From the NCBI GenBank assembly GCA_020632535.1, contig JACKFJ010000002.1, forward strand, positions 120,245-184,244: a stretch of DNA of 64,000 nt, given 5' to 3'. Each line of letters opens with the position of its first letter. Position 1 is the stretch's first letter. The notes under the pieces were generated by a model. That model ran no database searches, was not told where the DNA came from, and saw only the letters and a program-made list of their open reading frames with translations. Position numbers and translations under genes: made by a program. This DNA comes from Candidatus Omnitrophota bacterium (GTDB taxonomy: Bacteria > Omnitrophota > Gorgyraeia > Zapsychrales > JANLHA01). This document shows, one piece after another, positions 5,405-64,000 of the stretch.

Positions 5405-5570
5405 AATTTCCCCAATGATGTTTTGGATTATAACATTGTTAAAATGCCACTGCAACAAAGGTTAAAAGTATTTATTGATATAGGTAAAAACTTTTATCCA
5501 CCAAATTTAACTTTTATGTTATAAATATCCATAATTTAAAAACACCCTTATTTCTCTATATATAGCCCTG
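5405..5570. promoter_or_regulatory. Divergent intergenic region likely carrying promoters for mutS (+) and the coiled-coil operon (-)
   Basis: A 166-bp AT-rich spacer between divergent starts. Candidate sigma70-like hexamers on the plus strand: TTGATA at 5476-5481 and a TATAAAT-type -10 at ~5521-5527. Not verified. Confidence 0.3.
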
Positions 5571-8129: not shown

Positions 8130-8200
8130 TAATTAATTTTTACGGCTCAAAGTTCCTTCGGAACTGATTCGCCTTAAAAAATTAATTATCACTCCTTGAT
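8118..8200. terminator. Perfect 24-bp palindromic stem (8118-8141 / 8177-8200) with a 35-nt loop holding an inner hairpin; a putative bidirectional terminator or RNA processing site overlapping the mutS stop codon
   Basis: ATCAAGGAGTGATAATTAATTTTT pairs perfectly with AAAAATTAATTATCACTCCTTGAT. The inner hairpin is AGTTC-CTTCG-GAACT (8151-8165). The mutS stop TGA (8127-8129) lies inside the left arm. No U-tract follows, so the terminator call is tentative. Confidence 0.4.
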
Positions 8201-8216
8201 ATAACAATTTAAATTT

Positions 8217-8341
8217 AAGAAGTAAGAACAAGTCCGAAAGCGAATTGAACGCAGCCCCGATTCTGGCCTCCTTAGGCAAATGCCTAAGGAGACATCCACC
8301 GGGGATCGTTCATTGAGATTGAGGACTTGTTCTTACTTCTT
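8217..8341. repeat. Nested inverted-repeat element between mutS and mutL; a structured RNA, regulatory leader of mutL, or MITE-like insertion
   Basis: The outer arms are a perfect 19-bp inverted repeat: AAGAAGTAAGAACAAGTCC (8217-8235) and GGACTTGTTCTTACTTCTT (8323-8341), with an 87-nt spacer. Inside is CCCCG (8255-8259) paired with CGGGG (8300-8304). Inside that is a 10-bp stem CTCCTTAGGC/GCCTAAGGAG (8268-8277 / 8282-8291) with loop AAAT. It ends 14 nt before the mutL RBS. Confidence 0.6.
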
Positions 8342-8365
8342 AGCATAACTACTAAAAGGAAATTT

Positions 8366-16100: not shown

Positions 16101-19100
16101 GAAACAATTCACCATGTGCTCGCTTAAATTCAGAAACATGCTCCTGCGAAACATACCAAGAGGTCAAAATAATGTTTTCAAACTGCTCAGGAAAGAAATC
16201 GTACGGCCTAACCGTTACTCTCTCGCCAAGAGGTTTCATTTCATCATCATCATTACGCGCAGGTGGAATCTTTCGTGGATTCCAGAGAGCGATAGGGTCT
16301 AAATCATCGTAATCATATAAAACAACCCGACCAGTAGATGTAACACCATAATTTTTAGGAAAGAAATCACCTGCAAATAATCCAATACCAATAATTTCCT
16401 TAAGAGCTTGACCATAGTCATCAACTGTCCTGCGAAGTAATTCCGTGTCTATCGTTTCTTTTAAAAAAGTATCTAGCGGTGTAATCTTTAATTGAATAAA
16501 AAGATCTTTAATAATAATCGTCTCTCCATCGATAATTATAGAATCTGGAGCTCTTTGCTTTAATTCTTCAAGCACTTCTGGTGTAAAATCGGCCGTCGCA
16601 AATCGAACATTGGCATAAATCATCGCATCAAGAAGCCTTCCCGCACGATCCATTTCATGGACTAATTGATACTTTGTTTTAACCATTGCCTTCCCGCCTC
16701 GTATATCATAATCTTCTTTCTCAGAATGATCAGCGGCAACTTTTAGAACATATGGAAAATCATTGTTAAGAGTAAACGTGACCATCACCTTCCCCTTGGT
16801 TCCCTTTGCGAAGACAAATTTGCGCTCTGGATGAGTTAATTCCTCTGCCATAGATATTGTAATTTCAACCTTAGCCGGATAAACAAGCCCAATAGCGGCC
16901 AAGAGAAAAGCTCTATCCTTACCACCGGCGATCGTTTCAATAAACTGAATGATCTCTCGATAGTGCTGAATATCAACCATAAAATTCGCGCGTGTTGAAG
17001 CAAATAAAATACCACTGACATCATTATGGTTCATGAGTAAAGCATCAACGACAATACCAGTTTTGCCTTCTGGATGCGTTAGCGCAAAAACAAGTGGTAT
17101 CGTTTGTCCTTGAGAAATGATTCGACCCATCAGATAAGCTCTTTTGTTACGATAAAAAATTGGATTTAACATCTCAATCATATCGTATCGACGAATATTA
17201 TATTTAGCCATTTCTTGCTCAATGCGCTCTTGACTAAGTCGAATATCGCGATCTAAATCTTCAAACGGAACATTAAAATGAACCCTCATAAAGATTTGGC
17301 GAAGGACACTTTCTACCGAGATTTGATCATGATCACCCGAACTTAACAGGTACGATGTATATGGCTGATTTTGCAATGTGTATTGGATAGGAGTATCTTT
17401 ATGAAGACGTTCATCTTGATATTCGACGGGAATTCCCTTGTGAAGAAAAACACGACGAAAAGCCGAATCAAAGAATTGCATTCCAATATCATCGTCGTAA
17501 TCTTGCCGCAAGCGCTTTTCATAACGAATACGAAGATCTGCCCAAACTGCTGGGTCATCCATCTGTTTACCAAAAATCTTACCAATCTTCTGAACAACAA
17601 TCGTTACGGCTTGCGAACGAGATTTATTTCGATTTCTTTGTTCTCTCTGCATACGATTCCAATCACGAGTTTCAAAAGCCTTCTTGGCAACACGATGAGC
17701 ATTCTTGAAAGCACGAAATGAAGAACGAAATTCCTTATGAATGATACGGGCACTGCGATTCACCATTTCTTCATACATCCGTTCTTTAAAAACTGCCGAT
17801 GAGGAACTCAACACAGCTGTAATTAAGAATCCGCTCTTTCCTTCCAAAATTCTAATATCATCGAAAGCATACTCTCGTAACATATCATTAAAAGTCCAAC
17901 CCAAAAGATGAGCTCTTCCCGCATAAACAACCCCTGCCAATTTCGGCAAAACAATAATTATCCGACCAGAATTCTTTAAAATCCATGAAGCCTGCTTAAT
18001 AACTTGCGCTAAAATGTCAACATAGAAAATTATACCGTTATCGTCAGGCCCTGCTCCACGAGAGATTAAAGTCTTCCCAAAATCTGTCTGCATTGTGTTT
18101 TTATCAACAACTATATGATGCAATGACCTATTAAAAACAACTAAATCCATGGAGTGTTCCTCTAGCACTTTGCTTAAAGCGGTTGCATCGCCATACACAT
18201 GTGTTATTTTCTCTACGACTACTATCTGGTCACTTGCAAATAAATCCAACATTGTCATCCTATGCATGCCGCCAAGAAGTAAACCTTGTGCTGGAGCCGA
18301 ATTAGAAGCTGAACCCACATCAACCCCATTTCCTTGAAGCGAATAAAAAGCCGCTAATGTCTCAAACAACAATACGTCTTTATCATGATCCAAATAATCG
18401 ACAATTCTTTCCTCAATTGCTGACGAGGCCAAATTTCCTTTTCGTATTGCCTCGATACGTGCGTATAACTCAAATGCCGCCGCATTATCAGTAACTTCAT
18501 GAATCTTTACTTTGCCGTCGGGCATTATCACAACAATATACTCGTATGGCTCAACACTAATGCGGGGGAAAAGAAGATACGTAGTCTCTTTATTATCACG
18601 ATCCAGCCCCATACTTCTTCCCAGTTTCAAGAAAAAGAACCGTGGCAGAGAGGAGCCTTTAATCACAATCGTTAAAATATTTCTCTTAATCTGTGTTGTA
18701 AAGTTTTCAACGGCTTCCACAGCTTCATAATCAAAAATCTGAATCGGATTTGTTTCCTTAGGCTCAGCGAGATTGGTGTCGCGCAAATCGATATTACTTT
18801 CAAAACGCACTTTAATGCGCAATTCATTAGCCTTACGTCTGACAAAACGTTCAATCAATGTTGAACGCACTACAAAATCTTTAAGCCCGCCGGGTAAAAG
18901 CAATGGCGCGTTCTCAAGAATGACAATCTTCCCACCAATTTGTCGAGCAAATTTAATTAATAATGGGGCGTCATATGCTTGACGCAACTCTGCGGCTAAT
19001 CGCACAAAAAGGTCTTGGTTATTATCATTATAAAAAGCAATCCCCACGCCATCACCTTGGCGTGTCTCAACAATCTCGCCTGTTTTTTGATCAATAACCA

Positions 19101-22100
19101 AAAGATCAGTATTAATTCTGGGATCATCCAAAGTATTTTGCTCTTTCGAAGATCGATCAACACTGAGCGTCATTTGCTTTTCATTACCTGTCTGAGGATT
19201 AACAGTCGCGAGATATCCAAAATAATCATCATTAATAAATTCACGAACAATAATCGAAGGATAAAATCGACTGGCATCAAATTGATGCCGCTGAGCGCTA
19301 TGCGCCCAATCTTTAATTCTCACCATCAAGTCCACCCACTCATCGTCAAAGTGGCGTATCCATGCTTTTTGAACCATTTCAATAATATTATCGGCGGTAG
19401 CAATTTCCGGCAGCGTTCTTTCACCAAATAAGCGCTGATCCGCCATAGAAGATAATTTCACGATCGCTGTTTTATTACCTAAGGTTTCACGATAAGCCTG
19501 TTTGATCTTTGCTTTAAATTTATCAGACAGTGTAAGCCGTCGAACTTCATCCTGAACACGACTAAACTTATTAGGAAGCTTGTCATTAAGAATATCCCCG
19601 ATAGCTTGATCAAACTCAGCAAATCTTTCCCTCCTGAAAATATTTCTTAAGACAACAAAACCAGCAGGAATTGCAACATCATAACCTTGTTCACGAAGCC
19701 TGAGAGCAACTCGATGGATCATCGCTAACCCATAGGCATTTACACCCGCAATATGTGGATCTTTAATACTTAACTCATCGAGACGAACCACATCCGCGGA
19801 CGTATCCAAACTCCGTACAAGTTTTGAATAATATTCAATCAAAACACGATCATCATCTAATCGAAATCTGCGACTTGCCGAAATTATCGATTCAATAACA
19901 AATCCGATATTCTCCTCTTCAAATGTCGAAAGTTTTAATCGTTTACGGATGACTTCTAGTCGTTCAATAATTCTTTGTGTTGTTTGAAAACGTTTTTTAG
20001 ATTTAATGACTTCAGTAAATTGCAATTCTTTCAAATCAAGCGTCGTAAGATCATAAGCGAATCCCGTGAAGTATCTTCTCTCCGCAGGAGTCGCCCTTTC
20101 AATAATTCGACGTTGTGTTATTTGCAGCCAGACAATAAAGTCTTGATATGCTTTCTGTACCTCGTCCTTCTTTCGCGTCGCCCTAATAGCCCTAAGGGCA
20201 TTATGAAGACGAATAGTTGCTACCACTTCTAGACGCTTATGAACTGTCTGCTTGCGATGCGCAATAAGATCTTCGTCGCTCTCTTGATAAAAATGCCCTA
20301 ACTCCTCAATATAATCTTCCATAGACTTTTCATATTGCACAGCCATATGCTTAATCATGTCAAGCTCATGAGATAACCAATACCGGATAAAACGAATCTG
20401 CCACCATGAATCTTGCGCCTCTTCATCAAGTCTTTCGTAAGCTTCATCAAATCGCTCTGCGACAGCAGCATTAATATCAAAATTTTTCGGTGAATAAATA
20501 CCCTTTAAGCGAGTGTCGATAATTATCTCTTGTCCATCATTCAAAAGACCGTAACCTTCTTCCGTAACCGTCGCCCAAGCAAGTCCCAAAAACGCGCTGC
20601 GACTGACCGTATTACCAGTTTGCGTAATCAATCCGCGAATTCCTGTCTTAAACAAATTACGAAACTCATTGATCGAAAGCTCTTTAGCAACAACAACTTT
20701 ATCTTTGTATGCCGCCACATCACCATTACCATTTGTCCAAACCTTAATCGGACCATAAGCAAAACCATGCGATAAAGTTTCAACAGAAACAATAGCCGAC
20801 GAAGCAGACGTGCCGTTTTGTGTAATCTCATCGACAAGATGGGTGACAATCATATTGCTATCAGCCTTCTTAGAAAAATTCACAATACATTCATGAATCG
20901 CCGCTGCTTCTTGAGTCGTGAGTAAATTTTCTTCGCTAAAAAGATCCCAAATCTTACGAACTTCGTCCCATTTCCAATGACGTGACTGCGCTCTATTCCC
21001 GGTAGGTTGAAAAACAATCGCTTCCGCAATCGGTCGCGCGATAAAGTTGGACTTGCGTAATAAATCCCCTTCCATCCGTGTTTTAAAACCAAACATGAAT
21101 AAATACATCAAGCGGGATAAATCATCGCGACGCTTTAATAATTCATCAATCAATTTTTTATCCAAACTATTTTCCATACTCAAATCAACGATCGCCGCGT
21201 AAATAAGCTTACCAAACCATCCTTTGGACAATTGATCACGTAATTGCTGGCTAAGTTCCTTATTTTCGTCATGAAGTTGTTTTTGTGCTGCAACCATACG
21301 CTCTTGCATGACATGCAAATCAAACAATAGCGGCAACCCAACGACAAGAGCCTGTTCTTCGGTAAACCAATCTAAATAATCTTCTACTTTAGTAACAAGT
21401 GCTGCGATCAACTCTTGCTCGACTTTGATCGAAGCAAAATCACTCTTCTCTAAAGTAATACTTTCTAATTCGGCAATTTCTCTTTGCAAACCTGCCAAGA
21501 TTTCGGCCTGCAATTGATCAACACGCGCTTGAAGCATGACTTCTAAACGATCACCACGACTGTCTTGATTGCCATATTCCTCTAACTGAGCGAATTGGAC
21601 TTCCAACTGTTTAATCAATACATACAAAGCGTCCAAACTTGCAACAGCGGTTATTTGGCCGACGAGTTGATCAAATTCATTTTCTAAAGCGATGATGTGC
21701 GAACGATCTTGTACATTTGATAATTGTTCTAATAAAATCTTTCCTTGTGCTAAATCATCAGCGGTCAATCCTAATTGAGCGCGCTTCTTATCCGCCTTTT
21801 GTGCATCTTGAATTGACAAAATATCGTCTAAAAGCTCATGACCACGTTTAGCATCACTTTGTCCAGCCAACCACGCCTGAACACGACCACGATATTCTTC
21901 TTGAATCACCTTTCTTAAAGAAGCCTTTTTATAAATTCGCTCATCCTGCACTAACTTCACTAAAAATGCTGTTTCAACTTTTTCAAATCTTCCTGCTAAA
22001 GCCTCCGCAGCCGCAACAAACAAGTCATTATCCTGAGCGGCTAATAAAGATTCGAGTCTTTGCGTAATTTGAGCTGATTGACTATTAGCCACCATTAACT

Positions 22101-25100
22101 GAGTCAATATTTCAATTTCATTCTTAATTCCGCGTCGTGCTTGTTGCTGCTCTTCTAATTCCTTTTTACCTGCTTTTTTATTTGTACCATTCATAATGAC
22201 CTGTAAATCACTCCATCGCTGTTGCGCTTGATCAAGATCACTTTGAATTCCCATGAGAATATTTGCCGGAAGTTCTCGCTTAATAAAGAATGACATTTGT
22301 AGCGCGATTGATCGAAAAGCCGCGTGTTCTTTTTCCGTGATCAATGCCAATAGAGCATCCCATCTTTGATCTTCAGTCCCAGCAAGCATAAAAGCCACGG
22401 TCGCACGATCAAGTCGGTTAAGATCTTCATGATTTAATAAACGAACAAAACCTTGTTTTAATTGCCCGATTTGAGCCATTTTCTTTAACCAAATCACGCG
22501 AACATAATCTACCTTAGAATTCTTTTCTAACGTTTGTGCCAAAACAGCTTCCGCTTCGTCAAGTTTTTCTGTTTCCAACAACAATGAAAGCAAATTCTCA
22601 TAAAGCTCTTCCCACATTCCATTGAAAGTTGCGGCGGTTTGCAAGTATTGCATTCCCGCAGTATGCATATCTTCATCTTGTAAAGACCCTGCTTCGCTAA
22701 CCAAAATCAATCCGTATAAGCGGTGTGCTTGAGCGGCATCTTTCAAATTGTGTTTTAATACCGTTTCGGCGTATTGCTGACCTTGCTCAACTTGTCCTAA
22801 TTTCATCATGGCTCGCGCTTTATTTAAACCATATTTGAAATCTGAATTCCCACTCGTATTCTCTGCAAGTTCCAAATGTTTCAATGCTTCTGTATTTTGA
22901 TCAAGCGTTAAGTAACGAAGTCCCATTTGATAATAAGTATCGGCAATATATTTAGCATAACGTTGTTGTAGACCCGCAGACTCGATAAATGCCAGCCCCT
23001 TATTTACGACTTCAAAGAATAGATTTGTCGATTGAACGCCGGAAATCACAATGGCTAAATTGCTGTAAAGTTTAGCGATTAAATCATACGGCAAAAACTC
23101 ATTTCTAACTTTCTTCCCACGGCCTTGTTCAATAATCCAAAGAATGCCTTTTTCATATTGAGCTAAATGTTCCATAAAGCCATCAAAGCGGCCAAGTGTT
23201 GCTAAGAATTGGATTTGATTTCCGGTTAATACCGTAAATTCGATAGGCCATTGTTCATAGGATGTTTTCTTGAGTTGCTCTTCAATAACCCAAAGACCTA
23301 AATCCAAAGCTTCGACACCACCAACACCATTAAGTTCTTGAACAGTTTTCTCAAAAATTCCAAAATTAGAACTTTTTGTACCTAAAACGTCCATTGCGGC
23401 AACGCGTTTAGCACGCTCAAATAATTCAAGGGTTATTTTACTTTCGGCAATATTGATCGACTCAATACCTGATGAGGCAAGAATACTTTGTGATTTCTTT
23501 TGCCAAATATCCAAATAATAACCATACCGGCGAACATTCTCAGCCTCTAGTTTCTCATCCAAAAGTCTTAAGCTTGGGCTGTTAAGATTGTAGTAATCTT
23601 CTTGAAGATATTTTCCTAAATCAAAATATCCTCGATATTCACTATAAGGCGTCACGACAATCATTCCGTTGCGCTTTAACCATTCTCGTATCGAAGAAAG
23701 ATTAGTAACAAAATGCTCCATTAAATTCATCCCAGACTTTTGATACAAAACATCGAACCGACCGGCAAACTCCAAATCAAGACTTTGGTCATGACGAACT
23801 ATTGATTTATGAATAAAGATAATATTTCTTATCGTGGATTCTCCCGGCAAACGAAAAGCTAAATTAACTCTTCCCTGTTTTAACTGAGAAATCGCGATAT
23901 CTTCTAAACGCACGCCCATTTGCAACAATTCATGAATTAGGAAAATTTCAATGCCACCGTTCACAAAATAAGGAATAGCACCAAATCCGCTTTTTCTTTT
24001 GTCAGCAAAATATTCGCCCAGTCTTTGCTGCCGAACTTCACCTTCATCTAAATCATTAACCCGAGCACTCATTAAGGCGTCATATAGTTTTTCTCCCGAT
24101 ACAGGAACACGATCAACAACAACCATTGTTGAAAAATCTGTAACCAAAAGAGCCGTGATAATATCCGGGCCATTGCCTAATCCAACAACCCTAACAGGTC
24201 TTCTGTTTGGATTAACCAATTTGCGCACTTCTTGAAAATAAGCTGCTAAATTGGAAGATAAAAGTTGCCCTTGACCCAATAGAGCCGATGAGGCAGATTG
24301 CATGGCATCAAGTTTTCTTTGCCGAACTTGCGCAATGATTTCATACGCTTCTTCCTGCATATCGACAATGTGATAAAGATTTAGATCTTTAGCACTGATC
24401 ATTTTCTTTGCCAAAAGAACTGGGCGGAATAACTTTTCCTGCCACGGTAACCAAAAATCAGAACCCATGAGAATCAAAGGCATAACCTTATCCCCCTTGA
24501 GCTTCTGCGTCTGAATAAGCGTTATCGTTTGAAAGAAAACATCGAGAGCCGCATTGCCGCTTGGAAAGAAAACTATGCCTTGATCGCTAAAATTAATAAT
24601 GGCAGTCTTACGAATAAATTGATGCGTAACCTTAAGATAAATATCAGCTGATCCATTCTTAACACCGTTCTCATCACCAACATAAATGAGCTTTACATTA
24701 TTTTTCTTTGACGCGGCCCTAAATCCTTCTTCAACTGCTTTACCAATTCCCGTATGACTCATGTAAATAATCGAAACACCACGTGTTGCATAGTGTCGCG
24801 CCATTGCCTTAGCCTGTTGATAAGCATTTTGATACTCCGCGTTGAAATCAGCATCGTCGCCATGATAAGGAATATCCGTCCCCAGAATTGTTATTGCTGG
24901 ACCAATTCCACTCAATAATCCTTGCACAGAAAATAACTCACGAATAATATCATCAATCCTTAAAGCCTGCTTGAAGTGCGGATTCGCTTCAATTTGTTGA
25001 TCAATCAACCGAACGATACCATCAGCATCACGAATATCATTAAGCTGGATAAGGTCATCGACGCGATGCTTTAAATAACCTCTATTGTGCAAGTCACGCA

Positions 25101-28100
25101 TTAATTTCACAAAAGACGCGTAAAATGATTGATCAAAGATTAACGGTGTTTGAAGACTGATTACGCCTAAATCTTTAAGGACAAAAAACTCAAATGCTTC
25201 ATTAAGACTACCGAATCCACCCGGCATATAAATCGCGGCCTGACTTAACTCAGCAAAAGCTACCAAACGACTTAAGAAATATTTAAATTGAAGCAATGTT
25301 GAAATGTATGGATTTGCTTCTTTTTCATGCGCAAATTGTTCTAAAATAATTTTTAACCCAATTGAAATACCGTTTGCCTCCACAGCTCCTTTATTCGCAG
25401 ATAACATCGTCCCCGGTCCACCACCCGTGATAACAGCATATGAATGTTGTGCTAACAATGCGGCGATACGCTCAGCTGCCGGAGATTCAACACGCGCAGA
25501 ACCAAAAATATTGACACCACCCTTACCCGTAAAAACATAGTTCTCCAAATGTAAAAGCAGTTCTTTAACCGCCAAAGCAACAAAATCAGGACTCATACCG
25601 ATACGCGGCAAAGTAACTTGCTGTATGTCAGAACTTGCTCTTTTGATCGGTAATGTAAGAATTTTTGCGCTTTTGCCAGTAGAAACATCAGACAAAATCC
25701 GCAATTGAACATCAAAACGGTATTGATCATCGCGATTGGATAAAGAATTTACCTTCAAATGCGTCATATATCTTCGAAGCAAATCTTCGTTTCCAGCTAC
25801 GAATTTAGCATCAAATCCTAAAATCAAAATATATTGACTTGGCAATCCTTCACGAGCTTGTTCTTGAAACTCAATCATTTTTAATGCGTCACCATTTATT
25901 CCTATATGCACCGGATCGTGCTTATATTTCTCAATAGTCAACATGTTCCCTTCCCAGCCAAGAAAGAAACGATGCATCAAATCTCTTTCATACCTCACAA
26001 ACCAAAATGGGCGTTGTAATTCAGACGCTTCAATCGAGAATTCTTCATCTGTTGTTCTTGATGCAAATGTCGCAAAAACAAAACCTTTTCCTTGTTCAAT
26101 TTGCCAGCCTTCATATCTTTTTAAATTGATAATTTGCCGCATCAAAGGTGAATAATGATAGGCAACAGATTTGATATCATCGCCATGTAATAAAGCATTA
26201 CCCAACTCTTTATGTAACCAGCGATAAATCAAATATCCAATACTGCCGACGAAAAGCAATATCCCAATCGCCCAAAGACCCATTGTCGCGTTAATCAGCA
26301 GGGTTGTTCCAGCTATTGCATTCATCGAGAGAAGAAGAACACCCAAACCGATAAGCAGTTGCATAAAATATTTTGCTTTACTTAATCGTGGGAATCCAGA
26401 CATGTCAACACCGGCAGCCTCAAAAACTTGTGCAAAAACCCCAATAAACCGCGGCGTTCTCAAACCATCAGTTAAATTTTTTGATCCTCGATCTAGTACC
26501 AGCTTAAGTCCATTAATTTCATCAATATTCTGACCTCCTAGAATCATCAAAGATAAAACACTCTCCGGACTTAAAACTTGGAAATCTTTGAGAAACTTCC
26601 AGTCAATCAATTGAACATCGATGAGAAGCCCTTGCGATGAAAACCTCACAAGAATATTATGCAAATTAATATGACCGTGTAAAAACCAATCGCCATCCTG
26701 ATACCGCAAAACATGCTCAATCCGATGAAGAATCATATCTTTTTCGTTTTGTGTCAGCTTTTTCTTCTGATTCTCGACAATATCACCCAAAACTTGATAC
26801 CCATAAACACGCAAATCTAACTCATAATAATGAGTGGTATCATTAATTGCGAAGAATGTGGGAACAGCTCCGAAAAGATCTTGATCAATTAACTTTTGAA
26901 TTGTGGCGATTGTGGTGCGGGGTCCAATGAGTTTTTGAATAATGCGCCATTTTTGCTTAGGATGTTCAAAAACAGCCTGCTTCCGATCAAAAGATAAACT
27001 ATTCAAATCCATATTCTTATCGTGCCTTAATCCAGTAATACCTTTGACGGCTAAGTATTCACGAATCGCGGCCATTTGCTGATTCGTCCAAGGTGCTGTC
27101 ATAACCGGCGAGCTGACTTTTTGTCCTTCGACAATACTCAAAGACGTGCGATCTTTCTTGTGAACAAAAACTTTCGAAGGAACATTAAACAATTTTGCTA
27201 ACACACCCCGATACATAGCGGCGGGTCGATAAGCGCCATTTTCCCACTGTTCAATTATTCTGGCTAATGATTCACTTAAAATACGCTTTTGCTGCTCGCT
27301 TATTTGGTCGAACAGTGGACCTTGAATTATGTTAATCATCTGTCGTGCCATTTCATTCGGAGTCAAACCACGACCCATTCTTAACAATCGAATCTTATCT
27401 TTAATCGTGCCTTCCTTTATCAAGTGTTCTTTGGTCATGCCAGCTAAAAGCACATAAGCATCCACTCCGAGGGCAGCTGCTAAACGTGGCCAAATTGCAC
27501 CAGAATCATCAACAGGCTCACCTTTGCTCAATTTTAATATTCGCTTGAATGTTACTCCGGAAATTTCGGCCAACTGTAGAAGACTTAAGCCAGCAATATC
27601 GCGCAACTCTTGCAAACGAACTGGAAGCAATCGCTCTCTTTCTTGCAAACGTCGAATTACTGCTTGTTCTTTAATACTTTCAATAAATTCCCATTTTACT
27701 TGTTCTCGTTTTTTACCCTTACGCAAATACATTGGTTCGACACCCATCATTATGCTCCAGTCACGCAAAGACGATACATAACTTTCATCAATCGGCTGTG
27801 TGACAACCTTACTCCACTTAGCAAGTTGATTAACAAGAACTACGTCGGATCTACCCAGTGGCTGACCGATTTGATCCCATGTTAACGAACCATAAATGAT
27901 ATTATAAAGATCTTTCAAATATCGAATTCTTTGCGCGGCAGCAGCCATTGTTTCTATACCTTCGAGACCTGATAATCTGATAAGAACATGAACAATCTTT
28001 TTTTGTTTTTTAACTTCAAATTGTCCAATAAAATTTACAAGTGACTGCGGATGAATCATCTGAGTTCTTAATGGCATTGTTCCGCTGATTGCCCATTGAT

Positions 28101-46100: not shown

Positions 46101-49100
46101 CGAACAAGAAAATACCAATGTCAATCAGCCCAGCATATGTTAATAATCCAACAGCTACCAAACCCAAAAGCTGCGCAACACGAACAACTCGCGGCATAAG
46201 CACAAACACAAGCATTGAGCCGGCAACAAAACGCTTACCAAGTGATACCTTTTGATCACTAAAGACACTGTATAACGCTTTTACTTTCCACGAGCGACTG
46301 TCATCTTTGATGGACGAGGAAGCAGACAAAACCTGTGTTTGATTTACCAACATCGTTTCTTTAACAATTGCAGAAGAGCTTTCATCTTCACCTGCGTCAA
46401 CTACTGTTTCGATTGGTTGCATCGTTTTCTGAAGTACTTCCCAGAAATGTTGAATTTCTTTTATCATCGTGATACTGTTTCCCTCCATAGCACGTCTCAT
46501 CCCTATGGCGGCTAACATAAGCTCTGTTTGCTCTTCGGATGTAGCGGGAATCGTGTAATAAATCAAGCGCTTCATGTTGCCCTGATCATCCCATGTGAAT
46601 ATCCCCTCAAGATCTTGGAAAACATTTTGATGCCAAAGTTTCCATTTTGCAAAATGCTGATGAGCTAGAAGCTGTGAAAAAACATCTTTCCAACTCGGCC
46701 ATCGATAAGGGTCAAGCGGATTTTGATCAATACCTAATTTAACTGCAAAATCTTGAGTAGCTGCTAACTTCAAAATCTTTTCCAAATCACTTTCTTCTTC
46801 CTTCTTGTTTTTAATTTTATGAACATGGACCATCCCAATACGATTATCTTCAAAAGAAGTTCCATCTTTATTAACACCGCGAACAATATATTGGTTGCGC
46901 TGCAACACTTCGCGATACACATCAGCGGAAACTATGGTTTGCCCCGGCAAAAAGAGCGCGCTAATTTCAAGAGGTAAGGCTTTATAAGACATGTTTACTT
47001 CCACACCTTTTTCATCAACAATAAAATCGTCTCCTGTGCTAAAGAGACCGCCAACATCGCCAGAATTCTTTACCAAATCCCGGATAATTTCTTCCGTAAT
47101 CACTTCTTGTCCAGCGGTGAAATTTGCAACAATCTTTTGACGATCGCGCAAATAAGGAATAATGCCAAACAATCCCAGACCATGCCATGAGGAGATATCA
47201 TTAATCGGCACACTGTAAGTGCGATAAGAGATAATATTGTCCCCTTCAGGTAATTCGCGTAATTTGAATGTGATATAAATCGCCCCATTATCATAAAATC
47301 TTAAGGTTGCCTCAGCTAATCCACTGAAAACACCGGGGAAGCTTCTGCTGTCTGCCGCATTAAATCCTATCCAGTGCTTTGGAATTGCGATTCGATCAAA
47401 TGACGCGTTTTCCGACTGTGGTTGGCTGGCATACATTATTGCTAACGGTTCCAAGATCGTTCTTTCTTCCTGCTGCATCACTCCAGCATAAAGAACTGGA
47501 TTAATATCATCTTCATCCCACTGCGCGTTTTCTTTAAGAGCTTTGATTTCTAAATATCTCTTATGGATATCTTCAGCTTTTTTATAGTTCTCATTGGCAC
47601 TGCCACGACTGTCGAGTTTATTGTGACTTTCCCAAATAGCGGAAGCAATGCGCAATAGCAACATGTTGTGATTACTCCCATAGTATTCATCCCATTCTTC
47701 AACGTCGTGATATGTGATTTGTCCAAATCGATTCATATGTCTTAGAAGCCAAGTAAAAACATCACCGATTTGTTCTGTTTCATAAATTTCAACAAGATTT
47801 GTGCTTTCAATCGGCGTTGGCTTAACGGATTCTTCGAGGGAACTCGAGGCAGTAGAATTCTTCTTTGCCGCAGCTTGAGCGGCATTATAAACACGATCGT
47901 ACGCAGTAATCTTCTCATCACTCCAGCCGCCTGGAAATTCCATGGCTTTTCGAACTTCAGAAATCCACCATTCTGTGTCATTAAGATAACGGTCGAATGC
48001 TAAAGCAAAAGCTCCTGCTAATTCACGAGCGGTATTCTGCATACTTTCTTTAGAGTTATAATTAAATGGTGAAACTCCAAATTCTTCCGGTGTTCCCCCT
48101 AATTTCACAAAGTCATATAAGCCACCCGTCTTGGTTAAAATTGTGACCAATCCAATAAGTGCGGCTTGAATATTAGAAATTCCACCCGGCTCCCATGCTG
48201 ACGGCATAAAGAACACATCCATACCAGAGCGAATTTGATTAGCCAAAGCTTTGTCAAAAAGTTCAACAAGCATCACTTGGCCGAAGTATTTCTCACTTCT
48301 TGCCAATTGACGCAATTGTTTAGCAGTATTCTCGCCATCCGTGTCACCCGGAGACGCCATGAAAACCAAACGAATCTTTTCGCCATTTTCGCCACGCATA
48401 GCCAAAATACTTTCGATCAATGTCGTACCTTGTCCATCAACAGTTTCAAAAAGAATCGAGTATCCTTTTTGCATAACTAATCGAGAAACCGCGACAACGA
48501 ACATATCTTTTTCCATACCTTCTTGATTCAATGAACCAAAGATTTTTTCTTTATTCTTAGGATCATGACTTAAAGCTTCGAGCAACGCTAAAGTCGCGCG
48601 GAGATTTTGAAATCTCTTTTCAACCAAATCCGCATCTTGAGAGGTAAATCGCGTGAAGCTCAAATCCCCAACAGTCACATCTAAATCCTGCATATAGTCT
48701 GGTCTGTTCGTGTCTAAGTTAATACCATTTGGTACATACGTTAACGCGCCCTGTTTAAATCGATCAGCCATCAAGCCATGTAAACCAACACCTAAGTTTT
48801 CTGTCATAACTTCATGCATATAACCTTCGCTTACCGAAACAATCTGCTTCGCAAATCCTAAACCACCCTTAAGTAAATTATGACGTCCCCAGAATTCTAA
48901 ACCTTCATGACTCTTTAATAATGCAGAAGGAATATTGCTTAACGTCTGTCCACGTCTATTTTCAGTAACGAGATCGACATAAGCCAAATTGTTGCGATAA
49001 CGAATCTGATCAACCGTCAATATTCCAAAATTTAATAAACGAACCAACAACGGATCATTCGTTGTCACTGATTCTTGATTAGCAAATACACCTTGATACG

Positions 49101-52100
49101 ATAAATTGTGAGTAATGATAACGGTACCGGTCTCACCTAAGAACAAATTAAATTGTCCATCATGGCGATAAAGTTTTTCCATATAAACAGGTCCAAAACC
49201 GGTTTGCCAATCATTAAAGTGCAAGATGTCAACCTTAATCCCTAAAGCAACCGCAATATAAAATGGTGCCTTTGCTAATAAAATGGCTTCAATATATCCA
49301 TAAAGACTGTCGGTATATCGGCTACGAACAACTTGCGAGTACCGATTCGCATCAAGATCTTTTTCCGCCGGATACAATGATGGTTGAAGCAATGTCTGTA
49401 AAATCTTATCGGTCGGATAAAAGCGTAAATATCGAACACCGTTGACATCATTTTGTGTCACATTCATTGTCAACTGACCACTTCCCATCGGAACGGTAAT
49501 CGACGTTAGGACAATCCCTTGTGGCATCACAGGTTTTACGACCGGTGAATATTCAGCCTGATAACCCGGATTAATGACAAAGACCATATATCCAGCTTTT
49601 TCGAGAGCTTCAGCATATTCACGAATATAATCACCTTGACCACCCTTCATCGAAACACCCTCAGCAGCGACTAAAAACACAACTTTCTTACCGGCCGCCC
49701 GAACAGCGACAACCTGATTTTGTATATCCTCAATCAAAATCTTTGACTGTTCATCATGGCCTAATTGACGAACATAAACATGACCATTACCATATGGCAG
49801 TTCTGCCCAAACTTGACGATTTCCAAATCCTTCAAAAGCCACTGTAAATTCAAAATCATCACGAGCTTCAACACGAATCGCATAAACCGCGCGACCATTT
49901 TCAGTGTTTCTAACCCAGTTCATCGGTTCATCTCGCCATTGACCTGTACGATTCGAACGCAAAATCACATGACGTTGTTCACCCATACCACGCGCGGCTT
50001 TATCATCAGTCGCGTAAGCGACTCCCTCAATATTAACCTGTTGACCTGCAGCAACGTGATGAACGCGTTCGGCCAAAAACCCACCATTTTGAACCATTTT
50101 CTTGAAATTAAATTCCGAATAAGATTCTTCCTGAATGCGGATATTAGCCAAAGCCCAATCTTGAGCATGCTGACCCGTCGAACTCATACTTTCAACATGT
50201 CTAATATTTACAGTGCTATCAAAAATATTTTTGGATAAATTAAATCGATGATCCCATTCATCCACAGCGCACATACCGGCAACACTAACACTATTATTCA
50301 AAACAAATTGTTTAATCGCTTCTAAATCCCAATCTTGAACTTTCTGCGCGACTGGTTTATGCACAAATCGACTTTGATAATGAATTGTTTGAACGCGAAC
50401 ATTTAAGTCATTTAAAACATCCATCATTTCATTTAATATTTCAGCAAATGTCCGCACCTGCATCGCGTTGCGATAAACGTAGGCACCCACCAACGTACCG
50501 TCAGCCATAAACCCGCGCAACGCGAGAAATTCACTATCATTGTTATTTGCACTCATTCGTAACATATATACGTCCGCCTGAGTTTGTTCTACCATAACGA
50601 TCACCCATCCCGCTTTAATGACAAAACTATTAGCTGGATATTGAGCTTGCATGGAGTAGTTGTTATCCCAAACATATTGTTTTGTGAAAGCATCCTTGTA
50701 ATAATCCGGACGGGCAGATTGAACTGCAGGGATATACGTATACTTCTCTTCTGAATCAATTACACGATAAGAAGCGATTTGACCAATTTCGAGTTCATCT
50801 AAAGCCGTCATGGTTTCAAACCATTGATTGACCTGAAGAACATAGTTTAAGGATGCGTTCGGAAGACGGCTGACAAGACGGCTATGAACAGCGGCGCTTT
50901 GTCCAACATGAAGAAGATGATCGATTTCGTCGGTAATAATTAATTTGAGGGATTCATAAAGGTGCGGTAAATATGCTGCGCTTTCTTGTTCTTCAATGAA
51001 TTCTGGTGGCGCGCGTAAAGCACGATACGAAAGGTAAATCTCGCCATGACGAACATAAGCGATTTCGCCAGCGTCACCGTGTAAAATCAACTTGATAATT
51101 TTGTGAGTCGATTCGCCAAACCAGACCAATTTATCATTTTGTGTTTGCTGAACAAAAGCATAATTGATAGCATCCGCAAATTCTTTCGCAGGAAAATCTT
51201 TCAAATCAGCCGGCAACTTACCCAACTTACTCATGGTCACTTTACCAGTGCTCGGATAAATGCGAACCTTAACATTTAGTTCAACACGCGGCAATCCACG
51301 AAGCGCGGCAACATAAAGCGGGAAGCCATCTTGATTAATCGCGCTGGAGGCGGCATTGCTATGACCAGAACCAACAGACTTAATTTGTGTAGCGTAATTA
51401 TCTAATTGCTTACGGAAAGAATCCACATCCATCGCATTAACGCCGATCGCAGCAATGACATTTGCAGAATGTTGTAGAACTTCTTTAACCGTTCCTTCAA
51501 AAATACCGCCGGCAACAATAATCGGCAATTGGGCATTAGCTTGTCTGACCGCTGTGAGGAAGTTTTCTGCAGCATCCGCAGAACTTTTCTTTAATTGACC
51601 AAACGGCTTAAATAACACGACATCGACGTCTTTGGCCACAGTATTGGCAACTTCACTTTGAACCATTGTCATATCAAGCGGCAAGTTCAACGTCAATTCA
51701 GAGATAATCACGACATTCGCATTATTGCGGCGAATATTAGCAACGATTTCTTTAGTCCAGTTAGAACCGATAAGAATGTTAGCACCTTTGCGATTAGCTT
51801 CTAAGGCGCTGACTTCATCATTGACGAAGAACGCGACGATTGCCGTTGCATAATTTACATCTTGACGTAATGATTCCAAAACATCCATACGATCTAACGA
51901 AGGAATAATTTGACGATCAAGAAGTTCTTTTGCAAAATTCACAAGAAGCGTGGAATCAAGTGCCGCATAACCTTTACCGCCGGTAGTTGTGTGTAACCCA
52001 GCTTCAGCGCGGAAAGATTGTAATACTTCAATCACCTGTTGACGATTATAAACACTAGAAGATACACGATTCTTGACTTGCTCGACACGCTGATCATTTT

Positions 52101-55100
52101 CCAAAGCCCATTTGACAGTTTCAAGTTCATCACCATTGTTGACCGCAGAGCTGGCAGATGTCGAATTTTTGGTTTGAATATATAACGGTTCATAGCTGCC
52201 ACGTTTTAGAAGCACCGACGTTTCATGCACTTGTTCCACATCGCCCCACATATCATGATCTTGTGTGCTATAAACAACAACATTAACTGTCTCAACGATA
52301 CGATCAACTCTGATCATGTCCGGTGTATATGAACCTTGTTGCAAGTTTTGAACATAAGCAATCTCACGCTGCATAATCGCGCCAATTTCATACTTAGAAA
52401 CAGACTGTAAAGCTTTTTGAAGTTCTTCAGCGCGGATCAAATGAATACCTTTTTCCTCTAAGATTTTACGATATTCGACGGCGTATGGTCGAAAGACCGA
52501 TTCAGTCGTTTCGTAATATAATGGGTCTTTGCTCGCCATCTCACGTTCACGTGCTGCATCTCTCCTCGCACGGATGTACATGATAAATCCAGCAACCACA
52601 CCAATAGCAACAAGCACAATTAAAACCATTTGACCGATTGTTAAATAAGCCGCGATAGCGGTGATTGCAGAAGATGATTTGATATCGGTCAAATTCTTAA
52701 CTTTGCTATCCGTACTTGCGCTAGAAGAATTTTCTTCACCCTTCTTATTTAAGGCTTTGATCTTTTCTTCTTCCTTTTTGATCTTTTCTGCGGCAACCCA
52801 CTGATTAATTTGTTCCATTTCCTTTTCTGCAGATTTTGAATCTTTTCCAAATGCGGCAAAGAAGAGAAGGCCGGCAATAAGTACAGGAGATAAAATACTC
52901 AAAAAGATCAACACTGAAACATTTAAAATCGTCGCTAAAAATACTGCTGGCAAAATCCATGCGGCAATAATACCGCCTGTTACAGCCAAAGTGTATTTCG
53001 TATTCTTAACATAACCATTTTCATTTGGACGATTAACACGAGTCTTAGCACCCAAATAAGCGATCTTAATAAAGATGCGGCTGCCCCAAACGCGTTCTTC
53101 AACCAATGTGCTATACAAGAAATCACGGAACCCTGTCAATGTCCATTTATTCACAGTCAAAACATTAGTAGCCCCGCTAGTAACCAAGGCAAAAATTGCA
53201 ACGACCATCAAAACGAAATTGATCAACTGCACTAAAGGATTGTTCCAATTGACAATACCAGTCACCACCATAAAGATGATTGAAGCAAAGAAGACTAAAA
53301 GACCTTTCCACCAACCAAACATAGCAAACAAATCCATACCCTTTAAGTGACGACGGGATTCGCCATTTATCGTCCCTGCTTTAATGCCAAACAGACGAGC
53401 GAGACCATCAAGCTTAAAGAATGCTAACCAACCATTAAATTTCGAAACAAACGTATTATATGCAAATGTACCCGTCAAGAATGACGTTGACGCAAGCATA
53501 TAGACTAAGGTAATTGCTGGACCAAACGGTGTCGTACTTAATAAAGCAAAGAACCAGCCGAGTTGACCAAGCATACCGACAAAGCCGTCGAATGGAAATG
53601 CTTTCTTAAACTTTGACAACATGATAAAGCCGAAGAGCATCACAATCGGAGCAATAATTAATAATGCTGTCGAAATCCAAAGCGAAGCAAATATATGCAA
53701 AATAACAGCGAATATTTCTAAGCCCACCCCAATTCCAAAAACAACTTTACCTGCATTCTCAGTACGATTAACATTCAAACTCAACACCTTGGTATTTTCA
53801 TAACGGGTCTCAACACTCCATTTACTTAAGTTTGGCTCTTTGGCGGTACGAATAAAGCTAAAACTTTCATTCGATGCATAAAAGACACCCTTAACGAAAC
53901 TGGCAATAAGATTGACATAGAATGGGAAGCCGGCCATCGTTTCAATCAGAGCCATCCAAATCGCCTTCAAGAAGCTACCCGTCAATCGTAATTGACGTAA
54001 GAAGTTATGCAAATTGATCGCTTGCATCAAGAATGTACTGACGCCGGCGAATAAGAGAATCGGCGTTAAAAACGCGAAAGAACTAAATGTCGCGCCAACC
54101 GGCAAGAAGATCAAGAGTAAGACAGCATTAATCGCAGTAAAGTAATGAGCAAAGAACCCTAAGTGAGCAAGCTTCACATCGTAACCAATATCTTTATTAG
54201 TGAAGACTTCAAATTGCCCACGATCCATCATAAAGCGAGTAACGTTAAAAGCGTAACGGGTTTCAGTAGCGTACAAGGATTCAGCCAAGAGTGAAGGACG
54301 GCCCCATTCAAACGTAAGCCAATCTACCTGTGTCGAAAGAACATTCGGATAAGAACGCTGCATAACTAAGAACGCGCCAGAGTCTTCACCCGGAGGTGTT
54401 AATAATGTATCGCCAGCCGCCGGTGTGATCAAAGCCTTACCGTAGAACGTTGTCATACCACGACGTGCTCTTTGAACATCAGACGTAAACGTTTCTTGAG
54501 AAACTTTGTATAAACGGGTAACAGGGAAAGCCCAATTGCTAGATGCCCAAATGCGCATGTTCGGGTTAACAACAACAATTTCCGGATTGCGGCCAACTAA
54601 AGAAGCCCATGATGTTGTATAAATGTTTTGCCCCGGATACACACGCACATGTGCGTCTAAGTTCATGCTACGTCCGTATGTTGCCCAGAGATTGATAACA
54701 ATATTACTGTTCTTCACACCCAAAACTGGATTATCTTTCGAGCGATCGTAGAACGGTAAGTAGATATCGTTCTTGATCGTTTCACGAATAACATATGTCA
54801 CGTGCATGGCTTGTTGCCAAGCGGCGATCCAAGCCGTCGGAAGCGTGCCAGTATTACGAGTACGAATGAAATCAACAATATTTTCACGACGGAACTGATC
54901 AAAAGTATCCGCAAGCGTAACCAAATCTTTAGCGCTAATCGTTTTTCCTTCACCACTCCAGAGTCCTTGTTCTTTTAAGAACGCAAGAAGGTTGGCAACT
55001 AAAGGAACTTGTGATTCGGCAAAGAAACCGGCAAATGGTCCTTCTTCTAATTTATATTGTCCATCATTTGTTTTACCCATCAATTGACCCCAGAGTAAAC

Positions 55101-63954: not shown

Positions 63955-64000
63955 AACAGCCGCATTGATTCCTTCAACAGAACCCGCGTTTAAGAAATTA

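Follow-up and report, generated by a model that had tools for sequence, protein, structure and literature searches.

A recurrent Ala-Ser-Ser-Ala-type motif marks the module borders of a giant Omnitrophota protein and may be read by a protease

Background

A stretch of 64,000 nucleotides from the genome of a Candidatus Omnitrophota bacterium (GenBank assembly GCA_020632535.1, contig JACKFJ010000002.1, positions 120,245 to 184,244; this whole stretch is called the window below) contains a minus-strand open reading frame (ORF) at 10156..63954 that is listed with 17,932 amino acids (aa). In this protein, hereafter the giant, a short peptide, Ala-Ser-Ser-Ala (ASSA) or a near variant of it followed by an aliphatic residue, recurs many times. 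The locus raises the question of what this peptide marks and what might read it.

The giant genes of Omnitrophota, which reach 147,000 codons, have long been noted as a puzzle. A "multi-enzyme metabolic cluster" was described as class 1 of these giants (bioRxiv 10.64898/2026.06.07.730766) in a paper that covers about 5,761 proteins of this phylum with 10,000 aa or more, and that paper and the study of West-Roberts et al. (bioRxiv 10.1101/2023.11.21.568195) dealt with domain content and topology and speculated on cleavage by C39 or S8 domains. No junction motif is reported in either, and the cleavage points were stated to be unknown by West-Roberts et al. A 2024 survey of huge proteins named unknown protease motifs as an obstacle. 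In these three papers, whether or where giant products are cut is left unanswered, and a literature search found no paper joining "Omnitrophota" with "polyprotein".

An initial annotation of the window, made from its letters alone, had noticed the peptide and proposed that it brackets whole domains, as a protease or autoprocessing site, a standardised linker or a scar of recombination. We show herein that the giant strings together about 28 protein-equivalent modules, head to tail, behind a motif-free N-terminal region rich in transmembrane (TM) segments, and that every recognisable module border carries the motif in the form [A/S/G]-S-S-[A/S/G/P]-[I/L/V]. Other Omnitrophota multi-enzyme proteins carry a recurrent motif of their own at homologous borders. 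The finding holds up, has very strong statistics behind it and reaches further than the initial annotation could see, and its novelty is a punctuation code that is specific to each lineage.

Results

Enrichment of the motif in the giant

The exact tetrapeptide ASSA occurs 13 times in the giant, where 0.41 copies are expected from composition (Poisson P=1e-15), and it is by far the strongest 4-mer outlier of the protein. Among 2,000 shuffles of the giant, the mean was 0.35 copies and the maximum 4, so that the enrichment over shuffled sequence proposed by the initial annotation is borne out. Its estimate of about 0.4 expected copies was likewise sound, whereas its figure of at least 20 ASSA-type sites holds only if variants are counted in. 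About 29 sites are then obtained, comprising the exact copies, variants with a one-residue change (ASSS, SSSA, ASSG, ASSP, ASSD, ASST and GSSA; sites with Pro at the fourth position are called P-type below), and three sites supported by a position weight matrix (PWM), namely 9492 (SSSV-I), 8900 (SSSP-I) and 12280 (VSSP-V). An I, L or V follows ASSA in 12 of the 13 exact sites, and Ser-Ser is invariant at 28 of the 29 sites; the consensus is that given above.

The sites extend from aa 3760 to aa 17661, and the first 3,759 aa are free of them. With a broad regular expression, 0 matches were found in aa 1-3759 and 30 in the remainder of the giant, as against 1 in the 2,786 aa of neighbouring genes. 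The pattern [AGST]SS[AP][ILV] reached 1.0-1.27 per 1000 aa in the giant versus 0.04-0.06 in a background sample of about 490,000 aa, drawn from the ordinary ORFs of 80 fetched loci, and the motif is thus 20-60 times commoner in the giant.

Polar residues are mildly enriched in the flanks (z=3.6 upstream and 2.5 downstream), which argues for short junctions rather than long low-complexity linkers. Self-BLAST of the giant revealed only three paralogous module pairs, and the flanks are unrelated at most sites. An origin by chance or composition is rejected by the k-mer enrichment and the ordinary-ORF background, and the possibility that the motif is part of a repeated domain is rejected by flanks that are non-homologous at most sites. 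One look-alike, ASGA-L at aa 9949, was discarded as a site, as it lies inside the RelA/SpoT module and has a low PWM score.

Coincidence of the sites with module borders

The Pfam families identified in the giant are Glyco_transf_5, Glycos_transf_1, Polbeta, GNAT, RelA_SpoT, ACT, HTH_3, Lysine_decarbox/SLOG, TPR, AceK and Abhydrolase/PhaC. The modules between sites have a median length of 473 aa and range from 170 to 1,160 residues. For a test of the borders, full-length family models were offered 100 aa extra on each side and were free to cross the junctions. All features of the giant described below are on the minus strand.

The clearest case is the AceK module (aa 15388-15981; 16012..17793), which was recognised with the full-length isocitrate dehydrogenase kinase/phosphatase model NF002804. 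Positions 5-577 of the 582 in this model align to aa 15394-15983 (470 bits), and residues 12-571 of the 578 in E. coli AceK align to the same stretch. The alignment ends 2 aa from SSSA-V (15384-88) on one side and on ASSS-I (15982-86) on the other; the former, a variant at 17791..17805, lies 2 aa before position 1 of the model, and the latter, a variant at 15997..16011, lies at the AceK C-terminus. The module that follows (aa 15986-16770; 13645..15999) is an alpha/beta-hydrolase of the polyhydroxyalkanoate (PHA) synthase type, in which position 349 of the 350 in the PhaC model is reached at aa 16765, 5 aa ahead of the exact site 16771 (ASSA-L; 13630..13644).

Three further modules gave comparable results. 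A GlgA-like unit (about aa 4739-5368; 47851..49740) forms the C-terminal part of the module at aa 4206-5368; GlgA models end at aa 5358-5363, and the variant site 5369 (ASSS-L; 47836..47850) lies 4-10 aa after the C-terminus of the unit. The start of the RelA/SpoT model extrapolates to about aa 9501, close to site 9492-96 (SSSV-I; 35467..35481; PWM score 14.2, with 0.03 expected per shuffle), which forms the N-border of a RelA/SpoT-homologue module with a synthetase region and an ACT domain (aa 9496-10313; 33016..35469). This module is followed by the exact site 10314 (ASSA-L; 33001..33015). The LOG/SLOG module (aa 12777-13220; 24295..25626) lies behind the variant site 12773 (ASSD-I; 25624..25638), which is 7-30 aa before the extrapolated LOG N-terminus, while the AceK, GlgA-like, PhaC-like and RelA/SpoT termini are 0-10 aa from a site.

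Taken over all sites, 0 of the 29 fall inside independently aligned domain intervals, versus 5.8 expected (P=0.002), and the distances of five extrapolated termini to the nearest site sum to 49 aa, versus about 1,150 by chance (P<5e-5). Duplicated segments give the same picture. Two GNAT modules with 46% identity (aa 7631-7901 and 8169-8441) start and end at sites, which means that the duplicated unit runs from motif to motif. The first is bordered by the exact sites 7632 (ASSA-L; 41047..41061) and 7892 (ASSA-A; 40267..40281), and the second by the P-type variant 8171 (ASSP-I; 39430..39444; Pro codon CCG) and the exact site 8432 (ASSA-I; 38647..38661). Another exact site, 11177 (ASSA-I; 30412..30426), separates tandem copies at aa 10970-11171 and 11201-11402 that are 72% identical. 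Prediction by AlphaFold2 of a GNAT module with both its junctions, from a two-sequence alignment, had a mean pLDDT of 44, too low to be informative.

The units between sites are protein-equivalents that can be multi-domain, and not single domains. Thus, the module between sites 4202 and 5369 is made up of an unknown domain, a region that by eye resembles a carbohydrate-binding module (CBM), and the GlgA-like unit, and its internal border near aa 4739 is motif-free. The CBM-like region also resembles by eye the carbohydrate-binding region ahead of the GlgA unit in two other large proteins, P0016 and P0022, and just after the exact site 4202 (ASSA-I; 51337..51351), at aa 4208-4215, begins a domain that shares homology with segments of P0006, P0016 and P0026. 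The proposal that the sites bracket modules is therefore upheld by the ends of the family models, the GNAT duplicates and the lack of sites inside aligned domains, and that of defined module junctions is strongly supported and proves general, with the refinement just described.

Motifs of other Omnitrophota proteins

An exhaustive HMMER search with the GlgA-like module yielded 3,040 relatives, which occur both as stand-alone proteins matching end to end (P0003 with 607 aa and P0004 with 623 aa) and as internal modules of large proteins, and all of those whose source is named come from Candidatus Omnitrophota. In-frame stops upstream of P0003 show it to be a true separate gene. The large proteins each repeat a short peptide of their own: RTSP in P0001 (9 copies, P=1e-19), GARL, in the form GARL[A/S], in P0038 (7 copies, P=2e-10), ASSP in P0008 (4 copies, P=3e-8), R[AS]E[VLM]R in P0014 (11 copies) and ARLA in P0028 (4 copies). 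RTSP and GARL have no copies in the neighbouring genes on their contigs.

The GlgA-like family allows the position of these peptides to be compared directly. Stand-alone members end 4-19 aa past the conserved C-terminal "W..R..Y...Y..A", and the homologous C-border of embedded copies is occupied by RTSP-A in P0001, SSSP-V in P0008 and P0012, RSELR in P0014 and ASSS-L in the window; the N-terminal side of the unit shows the same pattern. In P0001, moreover, the residue right after RTSP (1654-1657), L1658, corresponds to position 2 of the CsrA profile, so that the last residue of RTSP sits where Met1 of a free CsrA would be. P0014 is laid out like the window giant, with a motif-free N-terminus of about 3,800 aa, in which stretches of hydrophobic, TM-like character were seen by eye, and punctuated modules behind it.

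Two giants located downstream of mutS are strongly enriched in a sister motif. In the L004 giant, which is not homologous to the window giant, there are 8 copies of SSPV (P=5e-16), and the Pfam domains (NUDIX, LpxR and Fic) each lie between consecutive sites. The L006 giant, also non-homologous, contains SSPL 3 times.

Some further observations were made on these proteins. The segment of P0001 (L081:3137-15046, plus strand) between two RTSP sites, aa 1654-1783, holds two tandem CsrA domains, possibly a covalently fused CsrA dimer, and the protein also has a transaldolase module and a GlgA-like module, such that carbon-storage regulators are strung together there too. A one-mismatch copy of the P0001 DNA motif (AGCACCTCGCC; L081:20028-20038, plus strand) encodes S-T-S-P in frame in the last, truncated gene of the contig, downstream of ABC-transporter permeases; this gene may be a second punctuated protein of the same genome, or the match may be due to chance. 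In P0006 (7,679 aa) and P0011 (2,326 aa), "ARTR[PE]G..TP" and "[ST]FPVEA.AVPG" were seen by eye, as further candidates for punctuation, ahead of repeated homologous domains, and TFPV (3 copies, P=1e-5) is the sole candidate type of these two proteins with statistics.

Peptide and DNA signals at the sites

The initial annotation held the motif to be conserved at the DNA level as well. This was overstated, inasmuch as the exact 12-mer GCTTCCAGCGCG occurs only 3 times (at sites 7343, 7892 and 8432) and all six Ser codons are used, both TCN and AGY, together with three of the four Ala codons; a modest excess is nonetheless real, since the mean pairwise identity of the window sites is 8.0 of 12 versus 7.26+-0.27 expected (P~0.015). 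Likewise, Arg is encoded by both CGN and AGR at the sites of P0014 and P0038. At the window sites, the first two codon positions carry 1.0-1.75 bits of information and the third lies close to background, and in all lineages the information drops to background within 1-2 nucleotides of the motif, with no flanking repeats or att-like structure. Motif copies are all in frame and inside the giant gene. The use of both codon families for Ser and Arg and the information at positions 1 and 2 indicate that selection acts primarily on the peptide.

An extended recombination site of the attC kind is rejected by these data, as the conservation is limited to the motif, three-periodic in the window and in frame. 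The initial option of a pure nucleotide-level recombination scar is disfavoured on the same grounds, given that what is conserved is 4-5 codons, with a period of three, and survives switches between TCN and AGY.

Codon choice at the sites has some peculiarities. The third-position GC content (GC3) of the window motif codons is 0.55 versus 0.35 gene-wide, position 0 of the motif prefers GCC (Fisher P=4e-5) and position 1 is enriched for TCC, these being the rarest Ala and Ser codons of the giant gene. In P0001, CGC ACC TCG CCN is found at 7 of the 9 sites, though AGR makes up 65% of the Arg codons of this gene. Pro is encoded by CCG in L004 and at each of the three P-type sites of the window, and Ala at that position in the window is mostly GCG or GCA; we infer that this usage fits a one-step CCG-to-GCG history. 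We tentatively attribute the extra nucleotide likeness to junctions that share ancestry or have undergone gene conversion, in addition to selection on the peptide.

Export signals and topology

Some junctions are followed by what look like export signals, and these cases count as individual observations only. A Tat-like segment, TRRDFLGAIIGFAA (aa 8437-8450; 38605..38646), begins one residue past site 8432 (ASSA-I, then TRRDFLG) and contains the only match to [STDN]RR.[FL][LIV] in the whole giant; it may be a decayed Tat signal from a once free-standing exported protein. Embedded in the L004 giant (L004:14517-22553, minus strand) is a homologue of LpxR, the outer-membrane lipid A deacylase (fragment aa 696-1172, 220 bits), where the junction ASSP-L is followed by a complete Sec-type signal peptide consisting of KR, AFVIFLVAVLPAFFFA and QSSSA|AQ. 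Elsewhere in L004, 13 aa separate the junction SSSP-V from a canonical Tat signal, NRRVFLK with a hydrophobic stretch, and P0014 has two signal-peptide-like starts after junctions.

Close double sites are found in four lineages, at 5859/5878 in the window, 1285/1289 and 1732/1739 in L004, 260/274 in L006 and 7498/7510 in P0014, and may resemble spacer peptides. A crude Kyte-Doolittle scan (not DeepTMHMM) indicated 24 TM-like segments in the giant, about 12-13 of them within aa 1781-3794, with paired TM hairpins inside some later modules. The TM segments between consecutive sites number 2, 2, 2 and 4. With these even numbers, almost all sites would face one side of the membrane, presumably the cytoplasmic side.

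Remaining sites of the giant

The site series opens with the variant 3760 (SSSA-I; 52663..52677), directly before the last TM segment of the N-terminal cluster; it is a better choice than the position near 52716 that had been assigned. The exact site 3934 (ASSA-V; 52141..52155) lies between it and site 4202. A doublet with a spacing of 19 aa is formed by the variants 5859 (SSSA-I; 46366..46380) and 5878 (ASSS-I; 46309..46323), with a TM hairpin next. Then follow the exact site 6362 (ASSA-L; 44857..44871), the variant 6612 (ASSG-V; 44107..44121) and the exact site 7343 (ASSA-L; 41914..41928). Beyond the GNAT modules, the P-type sequence 8900 (SSSP-I; 37243..37257) is a candidate site.

Past the RelA/SpoT module, the chain continues with the variant sites 10699 (GSSA-I; 31846..31860) and 11816 (ASSS-V; 28495..28509), the P-type candidate 12280 (VSSP-V; 27103..27117), the exact site 13221 (ASSA-L; 24280..24294), the variant 13493 (ASSG-I; 23464..23478) and two exact sites, 14384 (ASSA-I; 20791..20805) and 15176 (ASSA-I; 18415..18429). 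The last site is the variant 17661 (ASST-V; 10960..10974).

The coordinates of the initial annotation were mostly correct, with the reservation that the sites it took as exact near 44110 and 39434 are ASSG and ASSP (the latter placed one base off), neither being an exact ASSA. Conversely, those that it listed as variants near 30415, 24285 and 20800 are exact ASSA.

The giant and its genomic setting

The frame of the giant is still open at window position 64000, and 17,932 aa is accordingly a lower limit. No stop lies between the listed ATG and the window edge (63955-64000, minus strand; NFLNAGSVEGINAAV-M...), and the true start of the gene may lie outside the window, with a protein of more than 17,932 aa. 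The motif-free, TM-rich N-terminal region (aa 1-3759; 52678..63954) had no Pfam, NCBIfam or PDB match and no homologue in 5.8 billion proteins, and a phmmer comparison of the N-terminal 3,800 aa with other large Omnitrophota proteins found no similarity. This N-terminal fifth might serve as an anchor or as a device for translocation or processing.

Only 2 of the 17,932 residues are Cys (0.011%, versus about 1% in the adjacent MutS and MutL), a depletion of about 100-fold. They are located at aa 4562 (codon ending 50271) and aa 14356 (codon ending 20889). The neighbours in the window are mutS, mutL, and genes for a TPR protein and a DUF6580 protein; the TPR-containing neighbour (872 aa; 2840-5458, minus strand) has zero Cys, and MutS and MutL have a normal Cys content. 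Several other large Omnitrophota proteins are likewise poor in Cys, which makes up 0.11% of L004, 0.09% of L006, 0.03% of P0014, 0.06% of P0028 and 0% of P0022 and P0023. In the motif-free giants L003, L005 and L011 the value is 0.4-0.8%.

The adjacent MutS shares 83% identity with that of the Omnitrophota metagenome-assembled genome (MAG) SJ432, and nearly all of the roughly 15 loci ranked next likewise belong to Omnitrophota. At L003, L004, L005, L006, L011 and L018, a very large minus-strand ORF lies downstream of mutS and runs off the fetched flank; these six giants have no detectable similarity to the window giant, bar one weak match of L005. The site beside mutS (and, in the window, mutL) may be a conserved location for giants with fast-changing content. 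The syntenic fragment at L018:17657-22540 (minus strand; 1,628 aa) has 0 Cys and is without a punctuation motif; it contains a tandem peptide repeat including EQYLPPEP in 7-8 copies and appears to represent a different architectural class, that of a repeat scaffold.

Close relatives of the window giant were sought in several ways. A scan of a genome collection with the AceK module found no close relatives, and two metagenome scans, with a four-module region and with an alignment of the GNAT paralogues, found none. Look-ups of MutL and MutS by exact sequence gave no record. Word-indexed protein searches with the N-terminal 1,200 aa, the GlgA-like module and an L006 fragment returned nothing, in an index that copes poorly with such proteins and, for the GlgA-like module, at a cut-off of 1e-10 that is probably too strict.

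The giant comes from an Omnitrophota genome, has more than 10,000 aa, and contains TM helices and many Pfam families, with no family dominating by copy number (each identified family has 1-3 copies). It belongs to the "multi-enzyme metabolic cluster" class of Omnitrophota giants, with which it shares the phylum, a length of >10,000 aa, many Pfam families including starch synthase and GNAT, and many TM helices; unlike what was speculated for class 1, it is without a C39 or S8 domain. Its identifiable modules (glycogen-synthase-like, PHA synthase, AceK, RelA/SpoT, LOG, GNATs, nucleotidyltransferases, three HTH proteins of the XRE type and a weak PEP-synthase-like region) are biased to carbon storage and global metabolic control. 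This bias suggests a regulatory toolkit that is expressed in coordination. As the bacterium is possibly host-dependent, it is also conceivable that the modules serve host manipulation.

Discussion

A fixed peptide at about 29 borders of one protein, and another fixed peptide at homologous borders in other lineages, points to a trans-acting reader that differs between lineages. We consider that the motif is the lineage-specific recognition site of a trans-acting endopeptidase, and that the giant is a bacterial polyprotein, with a probability of roughly 0.55. This reading is favoured by the lineage-specific motifs, by stand-alone homologues that end where the motif stands, by export signals after junctions, and by the close double sites of four lineages. 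A site-specific endopeptidase, the most economical kind of reader, would free individual enzymes by cuts made at the cytoplasmic face of the membrane, either while translation proceeds or once it is complete. Some modules would stay anchored to the membrane by their own TM hairpins and, in relatives, some of the freed modules would be exported by Sec or Tat signals of their own. The cut probably falls between the 4-residue core and the aliphatic residue, as suggested by the register of CsrA in P0001 and that of AceK in the window. An interchange of Ala and Pro before an aliphatic residue is tolerated by post-proline/alanine or elastase/subtilisin-type specificities.

Several observations weigh against this reading. 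Of the initial options, a protease site is the one that the comparative evidence favours; yet searches of the whole giant (Pfam at E<=1 with overlapping chunks and single modules, NCBIfam, and a PDB sequence search) revealed neither a peptidase nor an autoprocessing domain, no peptidase was found among the other window genes or beside P0001 and P0038, and cleavage at the motif is putative. A trans-acting protease may be encoded elsewhere in the genome. The alpha/beta-hydrolase module was considered as a peptidase and rejected, as it is PhaC-like. No orthologue of the giant gene turned up in the genome-collection, metagenome and word-indexed protein searches, and the giants L003, L005 and L011 are without such a motif. 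Some borders also show a gap, such as the 79 aa that separate the ACT domain from site 10314. The Tat-like signal of the window, with its short hydrophobic region, may be a relic, and hydrophobic, signal-like starts after junctions are only borderline enriched (P=0.06-0.14). Finally, nucleotide identity at the sites exceeds the synonymous expectation (z=7.8 in P0001, 4.1 in L004, 3.3 in P0038, 2.8 in the window and 2.0 in P0014), and a purely peptide-level signal does not predict that the P0001 sites are nearly identical in DNA.

The location at junctions, the lineage-specific conservation and the selection on the peptide would fit any trans-acting reader, and the motif could be an uncleaved standard connector that is read by a non-protease, such as a kinase or glycosyltransferase acting on Ser-Ser or S/T-P, a chaperone or a docking factor, with the giant working as one tethered membrane multi-enzyme assembly. 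The nearly invariant Ser-Ser (28 of 29 window sites), the S/T-P in RTSP, SSSP and ASSP, the failure to find a protease in the giant, and TM hairpins within modules that suggest a membrane-organised assembly can all be cited for it. We nevertheless regard it as unlikely. A hydroxyl residue is missing from the core of GARL[A/S] and often from that of R[A/S]E[V/L]R, so that phosphorylation or glycosylation cannot be general, and plain flexible linkers are not normally of a fixed 4-5 residue sequence. Release is favoured by modules for which free termini or a different compartment would be required, namely LpxR, a barrel of the outer membrane that stands behind a Sec signal, a CsrA that starts at residue 2 and a RelA/SpoT homologue, which would need access to ribosomes, and by a Tat signal after a junction in L004. 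Less probable again is the view that the motif is mainly a nucleotide footprint of module addition or exchange, by short-homology recombination or gene conversion, the peptide being merely tolerated. Such a footprint would account for the excess nucleotide identity in all five lineages tested, the CGC ACC TCG CCN bias at 7 of 9 sites in P0001, the atypically GC-rich codons of the window motif and the sites that bound duplicated module units, and CCG for Pro (in L004 and the window P-type sites) versus GCG or GCA for Ala suggests a codon memory. It is at odds with conservation that ends within 1-2 nucleotides of the motif without flanking repeats, with information in the window at codon positions 1 and 2 but near background at the third, and with matches that are all in frame and inside the giant gene; the coexistence of TCN and AGY, or CGN and AGR, at the same positions requires amino-acid selection or independent origins, and the variants amount to conservative changes of the peptide, with A/S/G/P at position 4 and I/L/V at position 5.

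Translational punctuation, in which rare GC-ending codons or a slow peptide pause the ribosome so that modules fold in turn without cleavage, is improbable in our judgement. It could draw on GCC at position 0 and TCC at position 1, the rarest Ala and Ser codons of the gene, and on a location exactly at the borders of folding units, but pausing needs no fixed amino acids, yet the peptide is conserved with many codons, and the motif codons of P0001 (CGC, ACC and TCG) are not rare in that gene. To our knowledge, no stalling motif resembles ASSA, RTSP or GARLA. Hardly any weight is left for the idea that the sites are type I signal peptidase (A-X-A) sites, or an artefact of chance, composition or repeated domains. 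A-S-S-A does meet the small-residue rule for -3 and -1, and SSSA-A in L004 follows a segment resembling a signal peptide; however, 28 of the 29 window sites lack a preceding hydrophobic segment and have polar flanks, the modules are enzymes that use cytoplasmic substrates, and Pro occupies the would-be -1 position in three window sites and in most sites of L004, L006, P0001 and P0008, a residue that signal peptidase I does not accept there. Chance is excluded, and flanks are non-homologous at most sites; the flanks, Pro at -1 and the enrichment together effectively refute both the signal peptidase and the artefact.

The arrangement has parallels in known systems. Viral polyproteins, with the 3C sites of picornaviruses and the NIa heptapeptides of potyviruses, also place unrelated proteins in one chain with a short consensus at every border, and there too the consensus varies by lineage while the architecture stays. 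Unlike these, the giant is a chromosomal bacterial gene by mutS and mutL, with metabolic and regulatory modules and no protease module found; it is membrane-embedded and has a long motif-free N-terminus, and its cleavage is putative. In MARTX and large clostridial toxins, a cysteine protease domain frees effector modules at inter-domain Leu sites, and these huge, Cys-depleted bacterial proteins resemble the giant in their independent enzyme modules and short processing sites. In contrast, Pfam searches of all chunks of the giant found no Peptidase_C80/CPD domain or RTX repeats, its motif is A-S-S-A-[ILV] rather than X-Leu before a small residue, its modules number about 28 versus 3-5, and they resemble housekeeping metabolic regulators, not toxins. 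The giant is a member of neither the viral nor the toxin group.

Precursors with multiple cores for ribosomally synthesised and post-translationally modified peptides (RiPPs), such as those of the cyanobactin PatE type, and repeat precursors processed by Kex2 likewise have the same short recognition sequence flanking each unit and a dedicated protease, but their units are peptides of 6-20 residues from one family, whereas those of the giant are whole unrelated enzymes. The junctions of polymorphic toxins (VENN in CdiA and PxxxxDPxGL in Rhs) are alike in that a short peptide stands at a border of module exchange, with a nucleotide component that aids recombination. CdiA and Rhs differ in having a single junction, one variable C-terminal toxin and a downstream immunity gene, as opposed to about 29 enzyme junctions and no immunity gene in the giant.

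Conclusion

The motif supplies the first concrete candidate cleavage sites for such giants. It can be used to segment them for structure prediction and annotation, to search existing metaproteomes for neo-termini (a public metaproteome of a cultured relative, Ca. Velamenicoccus archaeovorus with the closed genome CP019384, is available as PRIDE PXD025008, cited in PMC12583861), to seek the reader enzyme by co-variation of the motif class with protease families, and to ask how unrelated genes fuse into a single ORF. Were cleavage refuted, the motif would still need a reader.

Somewhat short of an even chance, and hence put forward tentatively, is the broader reading that in many Omnitrophota dozens of ordinary proteins, be they cytoplasmic, membrane-bound or even exported, are made as true polyproteins, every lineage having its own 4-5-residue cleavage code (ASSA-[ILV], SSSP-[VL], RTSP, GARLA, RSEVR and others) and a co-evolving dedicated protease. 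Cleavage at the motif, if confirmed, would give cellular organisms a mode of gene expression that is new for them. Such a polyprotein code would be a bacterial counterpart of viral polyproteins that partly replaces operons, and the giants could then be split computationally into their mature products.

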